A DNA stretch of 64,000 nt from a virus. The stretch spans positions 9,231 through 73,230 of IMG/VR virus record IMGVR_UViG_3300042673_002211. The stretch is one strand, 5' to 3'. A program made the position numbers and the translations under genes. Of the stretch, positions 15,943-22,554 are shown one piece after another (positions within the stretch are counted from its first letter, which is position 1; the number at the start of each line of letters is the position of its first letter). The notes beneath the pieces were generated by a model, which saw only the letters and a program-made list of their open reading frames with translations, made no database searches and was not told the origin of the DNA.

Positions 15943-16929
15943 ATGGCAAAGAAATTAAATCTGTTGCATGAGAGAATCATCTACAAACCTTTTGAATACC
16001 CTCAAGCTTACGAATACTGGCTAAACCAACAACAGGCACACTGGCTTCATACTGAAATCCCAATGATGTCTGACCTAAATGATTGGAACTCTAATCTAAA
16101 TAAAACAGAAAAAAATATTATAGGCTCAATCCTAAAAGGATTTGCCCAAACCGAAACTATTGTAAACGATTATTGGTCTGGATTAGTAACTAAATGGTTT
16201 AGAAAACCCGAAGTTATAATGATGGCTACAACATTTGGCGCATTTGAAACAATCCACGCCGAAGCTTATTCTCTATTAAATGAAACACTTGGACTCGATA
16301 ACTTCTCAGAATTTCTTGAGGATGAAGCTACAATGGCAAAAATTGAAAATCTTATGTCTGTTAGGGATAGTTTCAATGGCGAAAAAAATGTCCCGGAAAT
16401 TGCCAAATCATTGGCTATATTCTCAGCCTTTACCGAGGGCGTTAACCTATTCTCTTCATTCGCCATACTACTCTCTTTTAAAATGCGAAACAAGCTTAAA
16501 GGAGTGGGTCAAATTGTTGAATGGTCTATTAGAGACGAGTCGATGCACTCAGAAGCCGGGTGCTGGTTATTTAGAACCCTTATTGAAGAAAATCCGTACC
16601 TTAAAACAAAAGAATTAGAGGCAGCAATTAACGAGGCCGCTCTACTTTCACTTAAACTTGAACTTGACTTTATTGATAAAGTATTTGAGTTAGGTGATCT
16701 AGAAGGATGTTCAAAATACGATTTACAAAACTTTATTAAAAATAGAGTTAACACTAAACTTGGTGATTTAGGATACAACCCCATTATCACCGATATTGAC
16801 CTAACAGCAGTTGAGCGTATGAAATGGTTTGATCACCTTTCAGCAGGTAAACAACACACCGACTTTTTTGCTAATAGAGTCACTAACTATTCTAAAGGAA
16901 CTATGACATGGGACGAATCAATTTTTTAA
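15943..16929 (+). CDS. nrdB: Class I ribonucleotide reductase beta subunit
   Basis: KPFEYP, ETIHAEAY, EGVNLFSSF, RDESMH, TDFF..RVTNY. Confidence 0.95.
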   Translation: MAKKLNLLHERIIYKPFEYPQAYEYWLNQQQAHWLHTEIPMMSDLNDWNSNLNKTEKNIIGSILKGFAQTETIVNDYWSGLVTKWFRKPEVIMMATTFGAFETIHAEAYSLLNETLGLDNFSEFLEDEATMAKIENLMSVRDSFNGEKNVPEIAKSLAIFSAFTEGVNLFSSFAILLSFKMRNKLKGVGQIVEWSIRDESMHSEAGCWLFRTLIEENPYLKTKELEAAINEAALLSLKLELDFIDKVFELGDLEGCSKYDLQNFIKNRVNTKLGDLGYNPIITDIDLTAVERMKWFDHLSAGKQHTDFFANRVTNYSKGTMTWDESIF

Positions 16930-16942
16930 TAACAAACAAATA

Positions 16943-18652
16943 ATGGACAGTAATTTAGTAGTAGACTACACACAATGGGAACGAGGTAAAGACTATCCCG
17001 AATTTTTTGATGAAGTAGCCCTTAGTACTATCTCTAGAGGATACTTACTACCAGGTGAAACACCTAAAAAAGCATACCGAAGAGTAGCTCACGCTGTAGC
17101 GTTGCGTTTAAACCGCCCTGAATTAGAGAATAAATTTTTCAAATACATTTGGAATGGATGGATTGGTTTGGCTAGCCCAGTACTCAGCAATACTGGTACT
17201 GATCGTGGGTTACCTATTTCTTGTTTTGGGATTGATACCCCAGATAGTGTCCGAGGAATTGGACTTACTAACGCTGAACTTATGCGCCTTACTTCGTACG
17301 GTGGTGGTGTGGGAATTTCCCTTAGCCGAATTCGACCAAGAGGTACCTCAATTACAGGAAACGGTAGATCAGAAGGAGTAGTACCTTGGGCTAAAATCTA
17401 TGATTCTACTATCATAGCTACTAACCAGGGTTCAGTTAGAAGAGGAGCTGCTTCAGTAAATCTAGATATCAACCACAAAGATATTCACGAATTTCTTCAA
17501 ATCCGCAGACCAAAAGGTGATCCTAATAGGCAATGTCTTAATCTACACCAATGCGTTGTTGTTGATGACGCGTTTATGAAGCGCTTAAATGATCGCGACA
17601 GCGATGCTATGTCACTTTGGTTAGAGGTGCTTAAATCACGCGTAGAGACCGGAGAACCATACATTATGTTTAGCGATAATGTCAACAAAGATAATCCATT
17701 GGCGTATAGGATGAATAATCTTGATGTTTCAATGACTAACATTTGTACTGAAATTACTTTACATACAGACGAGGAACACTCATTCATTTGTTGTTTATCT
17801 TCTCTTAATTTAGCCAAGTATGATGAGTGGAAAGACACTGACTTGGTAGAAACATCTATCTATTTTCTAGATGGTGTAATGGAAGAATTTATCCAAAAAA
17901 CTAATGGTAAAGAATCTATGATTAGATCTCACCGCCATGCTAAAAAAGGTAGAGCACTAGGATTAGGGGTAATGGGTTGGCATACTTTTCTACAACAAAA
18001 GAATTTACCATTCAATTCAATTGCTTCAACAGCCTGGACACACACTATCTTTAGCCAAATCAAAACACAAGCCGAAGCTGCTTCTCGTAAAATGGCAGTT
18101 GAATATGGTGAGCCACTTTGGTGTAAAGGAACAGGTACAAGAAATACACACTTGCTAGCTATTGCTCCTACTGTTTCTAACTCGCGCATCAATTCATGTT
18201 CAGCAGGTATTGAACCACAACCAGCAAACGTTTATGTTTTCAATGGTGCTAAAGGAACATTTATCGTTAAAAATCCCGAATTAGAGACATTACTTGAATC
18301 TAAAGGACATAATGTAAGTAAAGTATGGGACCAAATTCTAGCAGATAATGGTTCAGTACAGAATTTACCTAGTTCAATATTGAGTGATGAAGATAAAGAA
18401 GTATTTTTAACTTTCCCTGAAATTAACCAGTTAGCTTTAGTTCAACAAGCTGCGGCTCGCCAACGCTATATTGACCAAACTCAATCACTTAATGTATCGT
18501 TTGACCCAACCGATTCACCAAAATGGATTAATCAAGTTCACATAGAGGCATGGAAACTAGGAATCAAAACACTTTACTATCTACGTACTGATTCAGTGAT
18601 TAAGGGAGATCTTGGATCTCGCACCGTAGATTGCGTTTCTTGCGATGGGTAG
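16943..18652 (+). CDS. nrdA: Class I ribonucleotide reductase alpha subunit (no ATP cone)
   Basis: SPVLSN, PISCF, TNICTEI, CCLSSLN, LAIAPT, KTLYYLR, C-terminal CVSCDG. Confidence 0.95.
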   Translation: MDSNLVVDYTQWERGKDYPEFFDEVALSTISRGYLLPGETPKKAYRRVAHAVALRLNRPELENKFFKYIWNGWIGLASPVLSNTGTDRGLPISCFGIDTPDSVRGIGLTNAELMRLTSYGGGVGISLSRIRPRGTSITGNGRSEGVVPWAKIYDSTIIATNQGSVRRGAASVNLDINHKDIHEFLQIRRPKGDPNRQCLNLHQCVVVDDAFMKRLNDRDSDAMSLWLEVLKSRVETGEPYIMFSDNVNKDNPLAYRMNNLDVSMTNICTEITLHTDEEHSFICCLSSLNLAKYDEWKDTDLVETSIYFLDGVMEEFIQKTNGKESMIRSHRHAKKGRALGLGVMGWHTFLQQKNLPFNSIASTAWTHTIFSQIKTQAEAASRKMAVEYGEPLWCKGTGTRNTHLLAIAPTVSNSRINSCSAGIEPQPANVYVFNGAKGTFIVKNPELETLLESKGHNVSKVWDQILADNGSVQNLPSSILSDEDKEVFLTFPEINQLALVQQAAARQRYIDQTQSLNVSFDPTDSPKWINQVHIEAWKLGIKTLYYLRTDSVIKGDLGSRTVDCVSCDG

Positions 18653-18685: not shown

Positions 18686-18883
18686 ATGGAATTTTTAAAA
18701 AAACTTTGGAACTGGTTACTAGGACAAACTACGGTAGATGAAAAAATTGAAGCTAAAGTAGTTGAAGTCAAAAAAGAAGTAGCTGAGGTAGTAGAAGCTG
18801 TTAAAGTCGTAGTCAAAGAAACTAAAGACGTAGTTAAAACTGTTAAACCCAGAAAACCTCGTAAGCCAAAAGCTAGTAAATAA
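18686..18883 (+). CDS. Small protein with amphipathic N-terminus and basic PRK-repeat tail
   Basis: MEFLKKLWNWLLG...KPRKPRKPKASK; late-like motif upstream and terminator downstream. Confidence 0.7.
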   Translation: MEFLKKLWNWLLGQTTVDEKIEAKVVEVKKEVAEVVEAVKVVVKETKDVVKTVKPRKPRKPKASK

Positions 18884-18906
18884 TTACATTTTTTATATAA
18901 ACTTTT

Positions 18907-18931
18907 AAGGGCATCTTGTATGCCCTTTTTT
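18907..18931 (+). terminator. Intrinsic terminator
   Basis: AAGGGCAT-CTTGT-ATGCCCTT plus T-run. Confidence 0.85.
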
Positions 18932-18986
18932 ATATTTATAATAGACCAAAAAGTTTTGAATTTATTAAATCTTATAAAGAAAAATA

Positions 18987-20096
18987 ATGAAAAACTTATC
19001 CAAAGAAGAGTTATTAAATAGAATGGAGGCTATTAATCGTAGCAACGCTCTTATTTATTTTGATCTTAATGGTTTTATTCTTGGAGTGAATTCTATCTTT
19101 TTAACAACAATGGGTTATAAAGAGGACGAACATGAAAAAGTTGTTGGTCAGCATCACAGTATTTTTGTTGCTCCTGAATATGCACAATCAGAAGAATATA
19201 AAAGGTTTTGGAAAAAGCTAGGAGAAGGTAACTTTCACGAAGGTGAATTTGAAAGAATAAAAGCAGACGGAAACATTATCTATCTCCAGGCAACTTATAA
19301 TCCAATACTTGATGAAAATGGTGTTGTAACTAAGGTAATGAAGGTTGCTTCTGATATTACTACAACTGTAATAGCAAAAAATGCAATTAGTGCAATAAAT
19401 AAAAGTAATGCTATTATATATTTTGATTGTGATGGTTATATACTAGATGCAAACTCCATATTTTTAGAAACAATGGGGTATAACAAAAACGATTTAGATA
19501 AAATTGTTGGGAAGCACCATAGTATTTTTGTAGGTTATGAGTATGCTAAATCCGAAGAATATAAAGGATTTTGGCAAAAGCTAAAAAGTGGTAAATTTTT
19601 TGAGGGTGAATATGAAAGGATGAGAGTAGATGGTTCTTCTATTTATTTAAAAGCATCCTATAATCCCATAATTAGCAACGATGGAACTTGTAAAAAAGTA
19701 ATGAAAATTGCTACTGACATTACTGATACGATTACTATTAAAAAGCAAGTAGAAGAACTTTCTAAAAATTTACAGGTTGAATTAGATAATTCAAATAAAC
19801 TTAAATTATCAATAGAAATAGAAAAAAATAATGCACTAGAAGACTTAGATGCAACTATAAAAAAAAGCCAAAATGAACTAATTAAAACTATTGTTAAATC
19901 AGCTCTATTTGTAATCATGAGTGTTGGGTTTATTACCACTATTATGTACTCATTTGCAATACTTAATGATAGAGATACTCAAATAATTGGTTCAACCTGG
20001 AGTAACATGTTTAGCGTACTTTTAACGAATGCATTTTCAATTGTAGGCACAATTATGGGTATTAAATATGCAACACAAGAAGATAAAAAAACTTAA
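18987..20096 (+). CDS. Tandem PAS-domain protein with coiled coil and two C-terminal transmembrane segments
   Basis: Two ~120-aa repeats (AIN.SNA.IYFD..G.IL..NSIFL.TMGY...VG.HHSIFV...EEYK.FW.KL..G.F.EGE.ER...DG..IYL.A.YNPI....G...KVMK.A.DIT) of the chemoreceptor PAS type. No MCP, kinase or GGDEF output domain. Confidence 0.85.
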   Translation: MKNLSKEELLNRMEAINRSNALIYFDLNGFILGVNSIFLTTMGYKEDEHEKVVGQHHSIFVAPEYAQSEEYKRFWKKLGEGNFHEGEFERIKADGNIIYLQATYNPILDENGVVTKVMKVASDITTTVIAKNAISAINKSNAIIYFDCDGYILDANSIFLETMGYNKNDLDKIVGKHHSIFVGYEYAKSEEYKGFWQKLKSGKFFEGEYERMRVDGSSIYLKASYNPIISNDGTCKKVMKIATDITDTITIKKQVEELSKNLQVELDNSNKLKLSIEIEKNNALEDLDATIKKSQNELIKTIVKSALFVIMSVGFITTIMYSFAILNDRDTQIIGSTWSNMFSVLLTNAFSIVGTIMGIKYATQEDKKT

Positions 20097-20105
20097 AATA
20101 TATAG

Positions 20106-20129
20106 AAAGGATATTTTATATTCTTTTTT
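20106..20129 (+). terminator. Weak terminator-like hairpin
   Basis: AAAGGATAT-TTT-ATATTCTTT plus Ts; resembles the 18907 unit. Confidence 0.4.
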
Positions 20130-20186
20130 ATATTTATAACAAATGTTTTATCCAATAGTTGTATTTAACTAACTTAAATTTAAATT

Positions 20187-20426
20187 ATGACATTTTCAGA
20201 TATTTTCAAAGACAAGAGTGATTTTAACGAAAAAACTATCGTAGGATTTTTATCATTCGCGGTAATGGCAATTTTTGCCGGAGCTGACGTAGTAACGGGT
20301 ATTATGGGTAATCATCTCGTAATCAGTGATACAATTTTTAATTCATTTGTAATCATTACTCTTGGTGCTTTCGGTATTGCTGAAGCAGGTAAGATTTTTG
20401 GTGGAAATAAAAAAGGAGAAGAATAA
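20187..20426 (+). CDS. Small two-TM holin-like protein
   Basis: Two hydrophobic helices and a charged C-terminus; its stop overlaps the endolysin start. Confidence 0.55.
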   Translation: MTFSDIFKDKSDFNEKTIVGFLSFAVMAIFAGADVVTGIMGNHLVISDTIFNSFVIITLGAFGIAEAGKIFGGNKKGEE

Positions 20427-21037
20427 TGAGTTTAAAAAGTTTACAAGAGAAGATCGGAGTAGGCGCAGATGGTGCTTTCGGTCCTGGTACAATGAAAAAA
20501 GCTATGGAGTTTTATAAACTAACTCCAGTAAGAGCAGCACACTTCTTTGCTCAAACAGCTCACGAGACAGGTGGTTTTAAAGCATTTTCAGAGAACCTAA
20601 ACTACTCCGCCCAAGGCCTGCAAGGTATCTTTGGAAAGTATTTCCCAGGTACTCTAGAAGAATCTTATGCTCGCCAACCTGAAAAAATCGCTAACCGTGT
20701 TTACGCATCTCGTATGGGTAACGGAGACGAGACTTCAGGTGATGGTTGGAAGTTTAGAGGTAGAGGAGCTCTACAATTAACAGGTAAAGCCAACTACGAG
20801 GCATTCGCAAAGTACTTAGGTAACGATGAAGTTTTAAAAAATCCAGATACAGTTGCTACAAAATACGCTTTTGAATCAGCAATGTTCTTCTTTGAAAGAA
20901 ATAAGCTATGGGCAATTTGCGATAAAGGTATCAACGATGCTGCTATCTTAGAACTTACAAAACGTATCAACGGTGGTACTCATGGTTTAGAAGACAGAAA
21001 CGCCAAAACTAAAAAGTATTACGAATACGTTAAATAA
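20426..21037 (+). CDS. Endolysin, glycoside hydrolase family 19
   Basis: AHFFAQTAHETGGF...ENLNYS, GDGWKFRGRGALQLTGKANY, TKRINGGTHGL.DR; N-terminal ADGAFGP.T PG-binding-like motif. Confidence 0.95.
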   Translation: MSLKSLQEKIGVGADGAFGPGTMKKAMEFYKLTPVRAAHFFAQTAHETGGFKAFSENLNYSAQGLQGIFGKYFPGTLEESYARQPEKIANRVYASRMGNGDETSGDGWKFRGRGALQLTGKANYEAFAKYLGNDEVLKNPDTVATKYAFESAMFFFERNKLWAICDKGINDAAILELTKRINGGTHGLEDRNAKTKKYYEYVK

Positions 21038-21043
21038 ACTACT

Positions 21044-21481
21044 ATGAAACTAAGCCTCCCACTACTAGCTATCACATCATTTACCGCAGGTATAACCTTT
21101 ATGTGTTCATATTTTATGAATCTAACAATGGCAAATTCTGATCAGTATCTAGCTATAGTGGGAGTAATGTTTTTAGATGGAGTATTTGGTATGATTGCTG
21201 GTACTAGAAGAGAAGGATTCCAAACACGTAAAGCAATTAAAGTACTAAGAAACACCGTTGCGTGGTTAGTTATTTTAACAGTTATTTTAATGGTTGAACA
21301 AGGCTTTGCTGGTACAGCTTGGCTTAGTGAAGTAATTGTAGTACCTTTTATGGTGTTCCAGCTCATAAGTGCACTTAAAAATGCATCTATGGCGGGATTT
21401 ATCCAGATGAGTCTATTAAACCAAATCTTGGATAAAATAGATAAACATAAAGGTATAAGAGATGAAGAACCTAAAGAATAA
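21044..21481 (+). CDS. Putative holin (3-4 TM)
   Basis: Multiple TM helices, D...G motif, L.SALKNAS.AG typical of phage holin family 4; directly after the endolysin. Confidence 0.7.
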   Translation: MKLSLPLLAITSFTAGITFMCSYFMNLTMANSDQYLAIVGVMFLDGVFGMIAGTRREGFQTRKAIKVLRNTVAWLVILTVILMVEQGFAGTAWLSEVIVVPFMVFQLISALKNASMAGFIQMSLLNQILDKIDKHKGIRDEEPKE

Positions 21482-22520
21482 AATATTTCCGCTTTTAATA
21501 GCATTATCTGCCCTGTCAGTTTCTGCTTCTGCCGCTTTCTATTCAGTTAGTGGCCTTAGCAAACTCTTTGCTGGTGCATCACTTGAGGTCATTATTATGG
21601 CTTCTTCGCTTGAGGTAGCTAAACTTGTAATTGCTTCCCTGCTTTATCAATATTGGGATTCCTTAAATAAAGGTTTAAGAGCATACCTAGCAGTAGCAAC
21701 TTGTGTGCTTATATTAATCACCTCAGCAGGTATCTATGGTTTTTTATCGGGAGCGTATCAGGAAACAGCTAATAAAGAAGGTATTGTAACTCAACAAATC
21801 ACTGCTTTGGAAACTAAAAAAGCATTATACGAGGAAACAAGAGATAATTTTTTAGCAGATAGAAAATCAAACAACGAGCTTAGAGGTACACTCTCTAAAG
21901 GTTCAACTACCCAATTTACAGACAAAAATGGTAATCTAGTAGTTAAAACAAATAATTCAGCTATCCGAAACATCGAATCAACAGCTAAAGAAAACGAAAG
22001 ACTAGCCACTAAACTAGATGTTGTAAATGATTCTATATTTTCTCTTGAAACACAAATTCTAGAGGTTAAAGTAAATAGTGAAGCAGCAAGTGAACTAGGA
22101 CCACTTAAATACCTTTCAGAGTTAACTGGGGTAGAGATGAACCGGATTATTAACTGGCTTCTTTTAATAATCATCTTTGTATTTGATCCTCTAGCAATCG
22201 CTCTAGTTATAGCAGCAAACTTTGCTTTTAACCAATTACGTTCTAAAGAAGGATATGACATGTATAAAGATACTCCATTAGAAGAACAAGTAGAAGATAA
22301 TGAAGGAACTGATATCTATACTGAAACAGAATTAGAAGAATTAAAAGATTGGGATGTAACCTTAAATGATGGTTTAGAAGATGAAAAACAACCAAACAAT
22401 CCAGAACCCGAACCAGCTAAACTAGAGGACGATAAACTATTAAATAATTCAGGTATCTCATCTTGGCGTAAGAAAAAATTGCGAGATTATTTAGACGGAA
22501 ATACAAAAACATATTTTTAA
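21462..22520 (+). CDS. Membrane protein with TM hairpins and coiled coil
   Basis: SAAFYSVSGL, LEVAKLV, ITSAGIYGFLS, ELGPLKYL, IIFVFDPLA; ends the lysis operon. Confidence 0.65.
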   Translation: MKNLKNKIFPLLIALSALSVSASAAFYSVSGLSKLFAGASLEVIIMASSLEVAKLVIASLLYQYWDSLNKGLRAYLAVATCVLILITSAGIYGFLSGAYQETANKEGIVTQQITALETKKALYEETRDNFLADRKSNNELRGTLSKGSTTQFTDKNGNLVVKTNNSAIRNIESTAKENERLATKLDVVNDSIFSLETQILEVKVNSEAASELGPLKYLSELTGVEMNRIINWLLLIIIFVFDPLAIALVIAANFAFNQLRSKEGYDMYKDTPLEEQVEDNEGTDIYTETELEELKDWDVTLNDGLEDEKQPNNPEPEPAKLEDDKLLNNSGISSWRKKKLRDYLDGNTKTYF

Positions 22521-22522
22521 AA

Positions 22523-22554
22523 TTTGGAAGCCCGTAAGGGCTTTCGTATATTTA
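22523..22554 (+). promoter_or_regulatory. Bacteroidota-type promoter with a hairpin in its spacer
   Basis: TTTG-N20-TATATTTA; spacer holds AAGCCC-GTAA-GGGCTT (22528-22543). Confidence 0.7.

Follow-up and report, generated by a model that had tools for sequence, protein, structure and literature searches.

A phage PAS sensor protein that ends in a conserved membrane hairpin: a candidate modulator of holin triggering beside lysis genes

The window analysed here is a 64-kb stretch out of the 73-kb virus record IMGVR_UViG_3300042673_002211 of IMG/VR, the completeness of which is estimated at 45%; the record is that of an uncultured phage from lake water. At positions 18987-20096 on the + strand it encodes a protein of 369 amino acids (aa) made up of two PAS domains, a long helix and a hairpin of two transmembrane (TM) helices. 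The gene stands in front of a lysis cassette, the first gene of which encodes a 79-aa protein with two TM helices (tm79). The PAS-hairpin gene belongs to a phage family that is found close to lysis genes, and the same hairpin occurs in other phage proteins together with other sensors. It appears to be an optional, self-contained sensor module of the lysis cassette. The reading that we prefer is that its product is a sensor-gated modulator of holin triggering, acting as an antiholin or co-holin, and we put the probability of this reading at about 0.45.

The initial annotation of the window had described two PAS domains, a linker helix, two TM segments and no output domain, and Pfam, a hydropathy scan and an AlphaFold2 model agree with it on this architecture. 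The Pfam family PAS_3 matches the protein in two stretches (E 3.7e-24, 85.2 bits against a cut-off of 25.6), and PAS_9, PAS_4 and PAS likewise exceed their cut-offs. Kinase, cyclase and methyl-accepting chemotaxis protein (MCP) signal families of Pfam have no match in the protein, which stops six residues past the second TM helix (TM2) and so contains no MCP signalling domain. No PHROG family was found for the protein as a whole. The hydropathy scan picks out two hydrophobic segments, at about residues 298-327 and 341-359. In the model, which was built on 40 homologs and has a mean pLDDT of 84.4, two five-stranded PAS folds are followed by a helix of residues 246-326 that leads from a DIT motif into the first TM helix (TM1), a five-residue loop and a helix of residues 332-363.

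The first PAS domain (residues 21-123, positions 19047-19355) is defined by the PAS_3 match, the model, the alignment with MmoS and its invariant columns, which include an HHS.F motif and the F-alpha residue Trp75. The second (residues 142-244, positions 19410-19718) is defined by PAS_9, the model and an alignment with the Aer PAS domain (8DIK); it has an invariant KHHSIF motif and Trp196, and the DIT motif lies at its end. The single continuous helix that follows (positions 19722-19964) is seen in the model, the alignment and the hydropathy scan. It begins with a coiled-coil-like cytoplasmic linker of about 55 helical residues, where a coiled coil of about 50 had been noted at first, and this linker runs straight into TM1. 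The short outer loop (residues 327-331) and TM2 (332-363), placed by the alignments and the model, occupy positions 19965-20075 and are followed by a short tail rich in K, D and E. Both termini of the protein probably lie in the cytoplasm (N-in, C-in), because there is no signal peptide, Lys-rich flanks are present on the N-terminal side of TM1 and after TM2, and the loop is acidic.

Conservation is highest in the hairpin. In an alignment of 40 homologs, which are 66-80% identical overall to the window protein, there are no insertions or deletions from the second PAS domain through the end of the hairpin, the linker included, and residues D330-A362 are invariant save for two columns. TM2 is nearly invariant and rich in the small or polar residues G, S, T and N. 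When hairpins with every type of input are taken together (113 after dereplication), the core elements GSTWSN, LLTN, FSI, GT and KYA are kept at 90% or more. The clusters that an ESM Atlas search returned for residues 275-369 are all unnamed and 100% viral and score 0.87 at most; we treat them as a lead only.

The PAS domains had been labelled as chemoreceptor-type, and the label is borne out. Among cellular proteins, a 939-aa multi-PAS protein of Pseudoalteromonas is nearest, with 47% identity across residues 2-264, the PAS region only; its C-terminal region contains what we take to be a chemoreceptor signalling motif. The best sequence matches in the PDB are the FAD-binding tandem PAS domains of MmoS (3EWK, 2e-8) and the Aer PAS domain (8DIK, 3e-5), and 3EWK is also the top fold match found by Foldseek (E 4.2e-16). 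The fold matches in the PDB are tandem-PAS sensors with FAD, haem or LOV cofactors, so that the fold alone leaves the cofactor unsettled. Trp75 and Trp196 align with the Trp of MmoS and Aer and are invariant in the 40 homologs. The positions of Aer R57, H58 and D60, if our numbering of these residues is right, as we presume, are not conserved in the alignment of the window PAS domains.

The PAS domains of NifL, MmoS, AerC and Aer bind FAD according to PMC10468136, where a conserved F-alpha Trp is described as the primary determinant of FAD binding. FAD is also predicted for both PAS domains of BdlA (PMC8694187). Assignment to a redox-cofactor class of PAS domains had been proposed for the window protein, and the invariant Trp residues and the matches to MmoS and Aer are consistent with what PMC10468136 describes. 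By its F-alpha Trp each of the two domains fits the FAD-binding class of Aer, AerC, NifL and MmoS, and flavin binding is predicted.

Homologs of the window protein are abundant. More than 5,000 matches were found among 5.8 billion proteins, and the best 120 are all 325-386 aa long, 66-99% identical and of the same domain composition. The only names they carry are the automatic ones 'methyl-accepting chemotaxis protein' and 'PAS domain S-box protein'. A scan of IMG/VR confirmed 227 relatives, and in the 80 loci that were fetched the open reading frame (ORF) is intact and 62-100% identical. Among the structures in BFVD, the top match is a 528-aa histidine kinase of an uncultured phage, and a 218-aa uncultured-phage protein (48% identity over 122 columns) ranks fifteenth; both are without functional annotation.

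Only four close matches (60-64% identity) were found among 185,579 species genomes, and all four lie on contigs of metagenome-assembled genomes (MAGs). The bins concerned (L003-L006) are labelled with four taxa that are unrelated to one another, Ignavibacteria, Flavobacteriales, Saprospira and Saccharibacteria. Three of the contigs (L004, L005 and L006) have lysis genes beside the match, and L004 is the same contig as that of locus L080 of the IMG/VR set. On the fourth, L003, a phrog_7 endolysin gene lies directly upstream, and one more gene of a phage family is present. All four are probably prophages or phage contigs that were binned with cells. It had been pointed out that a truncated host receptor would undo the proposal of a phage function. 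Judged from sequence, the PAS-hairpin gene is that of a phage family and not a host remnant, because the ORF is intact and conserved in viruses, the hairpin is nearly invariant and the close genome matches are limited to four MAG contigs with lysis genes nearby.

The family is linked to lysis genes. The 79 viral loci that contain the full ORF fall into 42 groups at 95% identity, and lysins were sought with profiles built from neighbour clusters that Pfam types as GH19, Peptidase_M15_3, Phage_lysozyme or PG_binding_1 proteins. A recognised lysin lies within 2.5 kb of the gene in 37 of the 42 groups and within 0.5 kb in 26. The tm79 family lies within 0.5 kb in 29 groups and a holin family with four TM helices within 2.5 kb in nine; at least one of these lysis genes, lysin, tm79 or holin, is present within 2.5 kb in 39 groups. 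All of these counts are lower bounds, since many loci end at contig edges and the profiles miss some lysin families, including the phrog_7 lysin of L003.

Gene order around the PAS-hairpin gene is permuted. The lysin is downstream in 28 groups and upstream in nine, and tm79 is upstream in 21 and downstream in seven. The lysins themselves belong to different families, namely GH19 (24 groups), M15_3 (nine), a 269-aa PG_binding type (six) and T4-type lysozyme (four). The initial annotation had called for a check of whether homologs are linked to lysis genes; they are, and the argument from linkage rests on its persistence through rearrangement and lysin replacement.

The hairpin is also found apart from the PAS domains of the window protein. 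Residues 245-369 alone, searched against 1.84 billion representative proteins, match 97 clusters, and 70 of these have E values of 1e-10 or below. Most of the clusters are proteins of 130-260 aa whose N-termini are unrelated to the window PAS domains, and some are probable chimeras or fragments. The hairpin is fused to a GAF domain in P0133 (360 aa, Pfam GAF 2.5e-17) and to a single PAS domain in P0123 and P0137. A small N-terminal domain of about 60 residues followed by a coiled coil and the hairpin recurs in P0131, P0140, P0168, P0175 and P0186.

With P0133 and P0131 as queries, 155 new loci were fetched from IMG/VR, of which 154 contain a hairpin ORF; they form 71 groups. A 143-aa single-domain receiver is encoded directly upstream of the hairpin gene in 63 of these groups, and histidine kinases, such as a 528-aa protein of the type 2TM-PAS-PAS-HATPase_c, are encoded within 2.5 kb in 61. 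Within the same distance a PG_binding_1-GH19 endolysin is found in 36 groups and an M15_3 lysin in five. The second PAS domain of the kinase is 50% identical to the first PAS domain of the window protein, and the two have the signature HH(R/S)IF...EYK.FW.KL..G in common. Another 16 loci, more distant and found through P0161, all encode a hairpin protein of 184-199 aa, which has a receiver directly upstream in at least 15 of them (all but L330).

The signalling operon (L193:1014-5687, and 70 other lineages, within L089-L243) consists of one or two kinases, one of the type 2TM-PAS-PAS, a lone receiver and the hairpin protein with its small N-terminal domain, and an endolysin gene of the PG_binding-GH19 or M15_3 type often comes next. 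A DnaK-like HSP70 gene is found near it in eight of the 71 lineages. The fusion of GAF, coiled coil and hairpin (about 360 aa) is present in three loci (L089-L091). In L093-L102 a GAF-only protein is encoded a few kb from a separate hairpin gene, a split form as against the fused form.

The same hairpin thus occurs with PAS-PAS, with a single PAS domain, with GAF or after a kinase and a receiver, and it is not a known output domain. That any output must go through the membrane was a fair deduction from the window protein, and it is strengthened by the variety of sensors that serve the hairpin. No receiver or HATPase_c gene was found within the 73-kb, incomplete record. From the sequence comparisons, the window protein is best described as a one-polypeptide version of a phage relay with separate PAS kinase, lone receiver and hairpin protein, because the same hairpin elsewhere follows separate kinase and receiver genes.

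The PAS-hairpin gene is optional and lies in a swap slot, because near-identical relatives fill this slot with a three-gene cassette or with nothing. We compared the best 80 of at least 597 related-lysin loci, the lysins of which are 84-100% identical to that of the window. The hairpin gene is present in five of the 80, three of these five being of the window's own phage type, and tm79 is present in 75, so it is a constant member of the cassette with or without the PAS gene. Near-identical relatives diverge exactly between tm79 and the gene for a Lys-rich protein that lies upstream of the slot.

Two such relatives, L250 (nrdA 99%, lysin 98%) and L252 (nrdA 93%, lysin 96%), have three other genes in the slot (L250:1929-3389 and L252:3161-4615, the counterpart of window positions 18884-20186). 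They encode TM/coiled-coil proteins of 83 and 111 aa and a third protein, of about 315 aa, that has a signal peptide. Pfam and PHROG yielded no credible family for this three-gene cassette; an Rz-like spanin match of the L250 cassette (E 0.011) was taken to be at chance level, and the other matches are of a weak coiled-coil type. The three genes may form an envelope or spanin-like cassette of Bacteroidota phages.

In a third relative, L248 (nrdA 98%, lysin 98%), both the PAS gene and tm79 are missing. The same terminator hairpin and a TTTTATATTTATAA motif (L248:4929-5001) immediately precede the lysin there, so that tm79, too, can be dispensed with in the L248 lineage. Each of the swapped modules has a ATATTTATAA motif ahead of it. 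Among cultured phages, the closest relative at the DNA level is Flavobacterium phage vB_FspM_immuto (160 kb), which has the cassette and lacks the PAS gene.

Contigs from four lake-water metatranscriptome libraries match the PAS-hairpin gene at 95% identity or more. They cover positions 18687-19265, 19089-19684, 19168-19540, 19372-19868 and 19658-20215, and some of them bridge the upstream terminator-like hairpin or the junction between the PAS gene and tm79. The libraries come from four coded studies, possibly of one campaign.

In the window the genes around the PAS-hairpin gene are as first described, namely a two-TM protein, a GH19 endolysin, a holin and a TM/coiled-coil protein, all downstream and on the + strand. 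The 79-aa tm79 (20187-20426) has two TM helices by hydropathy and a charged C-terminus; it resembles class II holins by shape only and has no Pfam or PHROG family. Outside its own lineage the tm79 family is 37-49% identical to the window copy. The endolysin (20426-21037) is of the GH19 type (PF00182, 35.8 bits; phrog_181, 9.6e-63) and has no TM or signal segment in the hydropathy scan. The holin (21044-21481) belongs to Phage_holin_4_1 (28.4 bits against a cut-off of 22.2) and has about four TM helices by hydropathy. The last gene of the unit (21462-22520) encodes a 352-aa membrane protein with N-terminal TM helices, a central helical region and one C-terminal TM helix; its only family match is a weak one to phrog_4525, and a homolog is present in the cassette region of immuto. 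The terminator scan finds a terminator-like hairpin at 22525-22546 (+ strand) that closes the lysis unit.

A promoter-like motif is common to the PAS gene and the lysis unit. Upstream of the PAS gene, a GC-rich terminator-like hairpin (18907-18927, + strand; eight pairs, four of them GC, in the terminator scan) follows the gene for the Lys-rich protein, and is itself followed by a run of T and the 17-nucleotide (nt) motif CTTTTTTATATTTATAA. The first copy of this motif (18925-18941, + strand) is 54 nt before the start of the PAS gene and the second (20123-20139, + strand) 56 nt before tm79. A weak AT-rich inverted repeat past the PAS stop codon (20107-20125, + strand) was seen by eye and was not called by the terminator scan. 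The shared motif of the initial annotation proved to be the exact 12-mer TTATATTTATAA, which occurs at only two sites in the 64 kb, 18930 and 20128, both inside the identical 17-mer after a hairpin.

The 17-mer aligns with two intergenic copies that have one mismatch, at 2224 and 10576, each of which precedes another gene. When one mismatch is allowed, the 12-mer shows no overall enrichment in the window (nine found, 5.2 expected). TATTTAT has eight of its 37 + strand copies in the 1,706 intergenic bases. Intergenic copies of the form (T)ATATTTAT(AA) at 2224, 10576, 33100 and 40638 are 26-90 nt ahead of gene starts, and this motif is a candidate phage promoter element. A motif homologous to the second copy precedes tm79 in L250.

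Upstream of the slot lie nrdB (15943-16929), nrdA (16943-18652) and the gene for the Lys-rich protein, a 65-aa Lys- and Val-rich helical protein (18686-18883) with a weak PHROG match only (E 0.0073). In relatives with and without the PAS gene alike, the 65-aa gene accompanies nrdA. The two nrd genes are adjacent in the window (16929-16943); in close relatives they are about 0.5-0.65 kb apart, with an extra ORF of 172-198 aa between them (L009:2950-3476, L011:1088-1734), which may be a mobile insertion. Every long ORF of the window is on the + strand and the GC content is about 33%. From tm79 to the TM/coiled-coil gene, immuto is about 72% identical to the window. The host of the phage is probably a member of the Bacteroidota, because this nearest cultured relative in DNA sequence is a Flavobacterium phage.

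The architecture of the protein, its modular inputs and its lysis linkage support a signal-driven membrane module of the lysis apparatus. We propose the following mechanism. The two cytoplasmic PAS domains, of the flavin class of Aer, AerC and MmoS, would sense, inside the infected cell, a signal linked to its redox or energy state. This signal would travel along the rigid helix, the length of which is fixed in the 40 aligned homologs, into TM1 of the hairpin, which would take the place of the DHp domain in PAS histidine kinases. The hairpin would then alter its packing or oligomeric state in the inner membrane, and this change would advance or delay the triggering of the holin or holins of the cassette, Phage_holin_4_1 and/or tm79. 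Triggering would release the soluble GH19 endolysin, so that the hairpin would in effect be an antiholin or co-holin. In sister phages the hairpin would be driven by a fused GAF domain or by a PAS histidine kinase of the phage together with a single-domain receiver. Likewise inferred are the topology (N-in, C-in), FAD as the cofactor, the membrane target and which way the effect goes.

The initial annotation had suggested that the protein could be a redox- or energy-sensing holin, antiholin or channel that tunes lysis time. The lysis linkage, the phage origin and the fit to FAD-type PAS domains that belong to this interpretation stood. The role as holin, antiholin or channel did not find support of its own. 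Roughly half of the kinase-driven relatives have no recognised lysin as a neighbour. An hhalign comparison led us to reject homology of the hairpin with tm79 (probability 0.7%) and with the holin (1.0%), and the hairpin matches no Pfam or PHROG family, holin families included. A complex prediction for the hairpin (residues 285-369) with tm79 scored 0.00 in both runs and its controls did not fold, so that it speaks neither for nor against binding.

Several further observations weigh against a modulator of holin triggering. The hairpin is near-invariant, while its holin-like neighbours vary, as the divergence of tm79 among lineages illustrates; such invariance would be more readily explained by a conserved host target, or by strict packing of the hairpin with itself, than by co-evolution with a phage holin. 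The hairpin has no visible fixed partner among phage membrane proteins, because tm79 mostly occurs without it, as in most of the 75 cassettes above, and lies within 2.5 kb of only ten of the 71 kinase- or GAF-type hairpins. The lineages share ancestry, so that the linkage counts do not represent independent events. Among the PAS-type lineages, L062/L063/L070 adjoins genes for a UvsX-like recombinase and endonuclease VII and not lysis genes, and the remaining exceptions, L051 and L071, have neighbours without any PHROG family. No record in the cultured-phage collection carries the hairpin; there, tblastn gave three PAS-only matches with the window protein and none with P0131. The support from RNA libraries consists of contigs, which give no level, strand or ends, and DNA carry-over is possible.

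The hairpin might instead be an effector that acts on a conserved host inner-membrane component, for instance one of respiration, transport or division, or that serves superinfection exclusion. It would adapt the physiology of the host to the state that is sensed, and its proximity to lysis genes would then reflect a common promoter type or a tolerant insertion site. The near-invariance of the hairpin, outer loop included, across lineages with differing lysis genes would suit an unchanging target, probably of the host. In 31 of the 71 kinase- or GAF-type lineages no lysis gene is recognised within 2.5 kb, only two of the 16 distant loci have a recognised lysin in the stretch displayed, the neighbours in one PAS-type lineage are genes of DNA metabolism, and the slot before the lysin also accepts an unrelated three-gene cassette, a candidate envelope cassette. 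However, a tolerant site poorly explains why the gene has stayed within 2.5 kb of lysis genes in 39 of the 42 PAS-type lineages, although gene order has changed and lysins have been exchanged. Lysins also adjoin the GAF fusion and over half of the kinase-type loci, the identical 17-nt motif stands upstream of both the gene and the lysis unit, and lysin detection is a lower bound, as the family missed in L003 illustrates. We regard a host target, or some other role outside lysis timing, as unlikely, at about one chance in four by our own weighing.

Somewhat more doubtful still is the idea that the hairpin is itself a sensor-controlled holin or pinholin, which would oligomerise and depolarise or perforate the membrane when the PAS domains, the GAF domain or a phosphorylated receiver release it, with the neighbouring holin-like genes as partners or back-ups. 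Its shape is that of class II, with two TM helices joined by a short outer loop and with a short C-terminal tail rich in K, D and E, and the small and polar residues of its nearly invariant TM2 are as expected for packing of helices against its own copies. It is located in lysis cassettes, and in kinase-type loci no conserved phage membrane partner adjoins it. Nevertheless, the cassette exists without the hairpin gene in immuto and in 75 of the 80 close lysin loci, and a holin with a family assignment and a further two-TM protein are already encoded in the window. At 369 aa the protein also far exceeds the size of known holins, and it has no homology to any holin family.

It is very improbable that the gene is a captured and truncated fragment of a host chemoreceptor or sensor, functionless or a decoy for host PAS partners, as its public labels and its kinship with the PAS repeats of chemoreceptors might suggest, given the intact ORF in the fetched viral loci, the linker free of indels, the purely viral Atlas clusters, the combination of the same hairpin with other sensors, and a most conserved part that has no cellular counterpart and whose close genome matches all lie on MAG contigs near lysis genes.

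In a literature search that covered few subscription journals, we came across no description of a phage lysis cassette with a PAS, GAF or two-component sensor. The closest systems are lysis inhibition in T4 and ICP1, dual-start holins, Aer-type receptors and the PAS receptor of phage VP882, and none of them has the PAS-hairpin architecture.

In the accounts of T4 lysis inhibition in PMC11413866 and PMC8385771, the holin T is controlled by the antiholins RI, which is periplasmic, and RIII, which is cytoplasmic; lysis inhibition is also described for ICP1 (PMC7182436). The proposed role of the window protein resembles these systems in that it would be an accessory lysis protein of a phage, dispensable for lysis and located at the inner membrane, that would turn a sensed condition into a change in holin timing. 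RI and RIII are small, have no recognised sensor domain and respond to superinfection, whereas the window protein has a cytoplasmic tandem PAS sensor on a hairpin, in place of which its relatives have GAF or a kinase and a receiver. It has no sequence similarity to RI or RIII (no PHROG match), and its binding to a holin is only proposed.

In class II holins and pinholins, of which the dual-start pairs S105/S107 of lambda and S68/S71 of phage 21 are examples, the cytoplasmic N-terminal end of TM1 decides between holin and antiholin. The window protein shares with class II holins the two TM helices, the short loop, the charged C-terminal tail and the location of its gene in a lysis cassette, and its sensor sits at the N-terminal end of TM1. 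It differs in its length of 369 aa, of which 300 residues form a cytoplasmic sensor, in its lack of homology to holin families and in that the cassette has a holin of its own. With Aer it shares the PAS class by sequence and fold, the F-alpha Trp and a cytoplasmic PAS domain tethered to a membrane hairpin. Aer continues into a HAMP domain and a kinase-control domain, whereas the window protein ends at the hairpin.

Silpe and Bassler (2019) reportedly described VqmA-Phi of phage VP882 as a PAS-domain quorum-sensing receptor, a soluble DNA-binding factor that controls the switch between lysis and lysogeny. Like VqmA-Phi, the window protein would be a phage PAS sensor that decides on host killing from a small-molecule cue. 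Unlike it, the window protein has no DNA-binding domain, is predicted to be in the membrane and is encoded beside lysis genes. In staphylococci and Bacillus the LytSR two-component system works with the holin-like CidAB and LrgAB, so that signal transduction is tied there, too, to membrane proteins that resemble holins and antiholins. That system is cellular and transcriptional, whereas the phage sensor is fused to the membrane module or joined to it through a lone receiver.

Lysis timing determines the burst size and fitness of a phage. In the phages studied it is set by clocks intrinsic to the holin, or is shifted by superinfection through lysis inhibition of the T4 or ICP1 kind. As a tentative wider view, a little short of even odds, the family may represent a phage-only sensor-to-membrane system that is widespread in phages of aquatic metagenomes, probably those of Bacteroidota. 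The hairpin would be a new output domain that stands where other systems have the DHp domain of a kinase or a DNA-binding domain; its inputs would be PAS or GAF domains fused to it or a kinase-receiver relay of the phage, and the moment of lysis would be set by the redox or energy state of the host. Such a system would parallel T4 lysis inhibition but sense the cytoplasm, and it would be the first lysis clock to have a sensor domain dedicated to it. If this is true, bacterial-type signal transduction would gain a new output domain, and the module could possibly be used in synthetic biology as a compact redox-gated membrane switch. Many environmental phages would then read the metabolic state of their host before lysis, which is relevant to the modelling of viral lysis in lakes and oceans.

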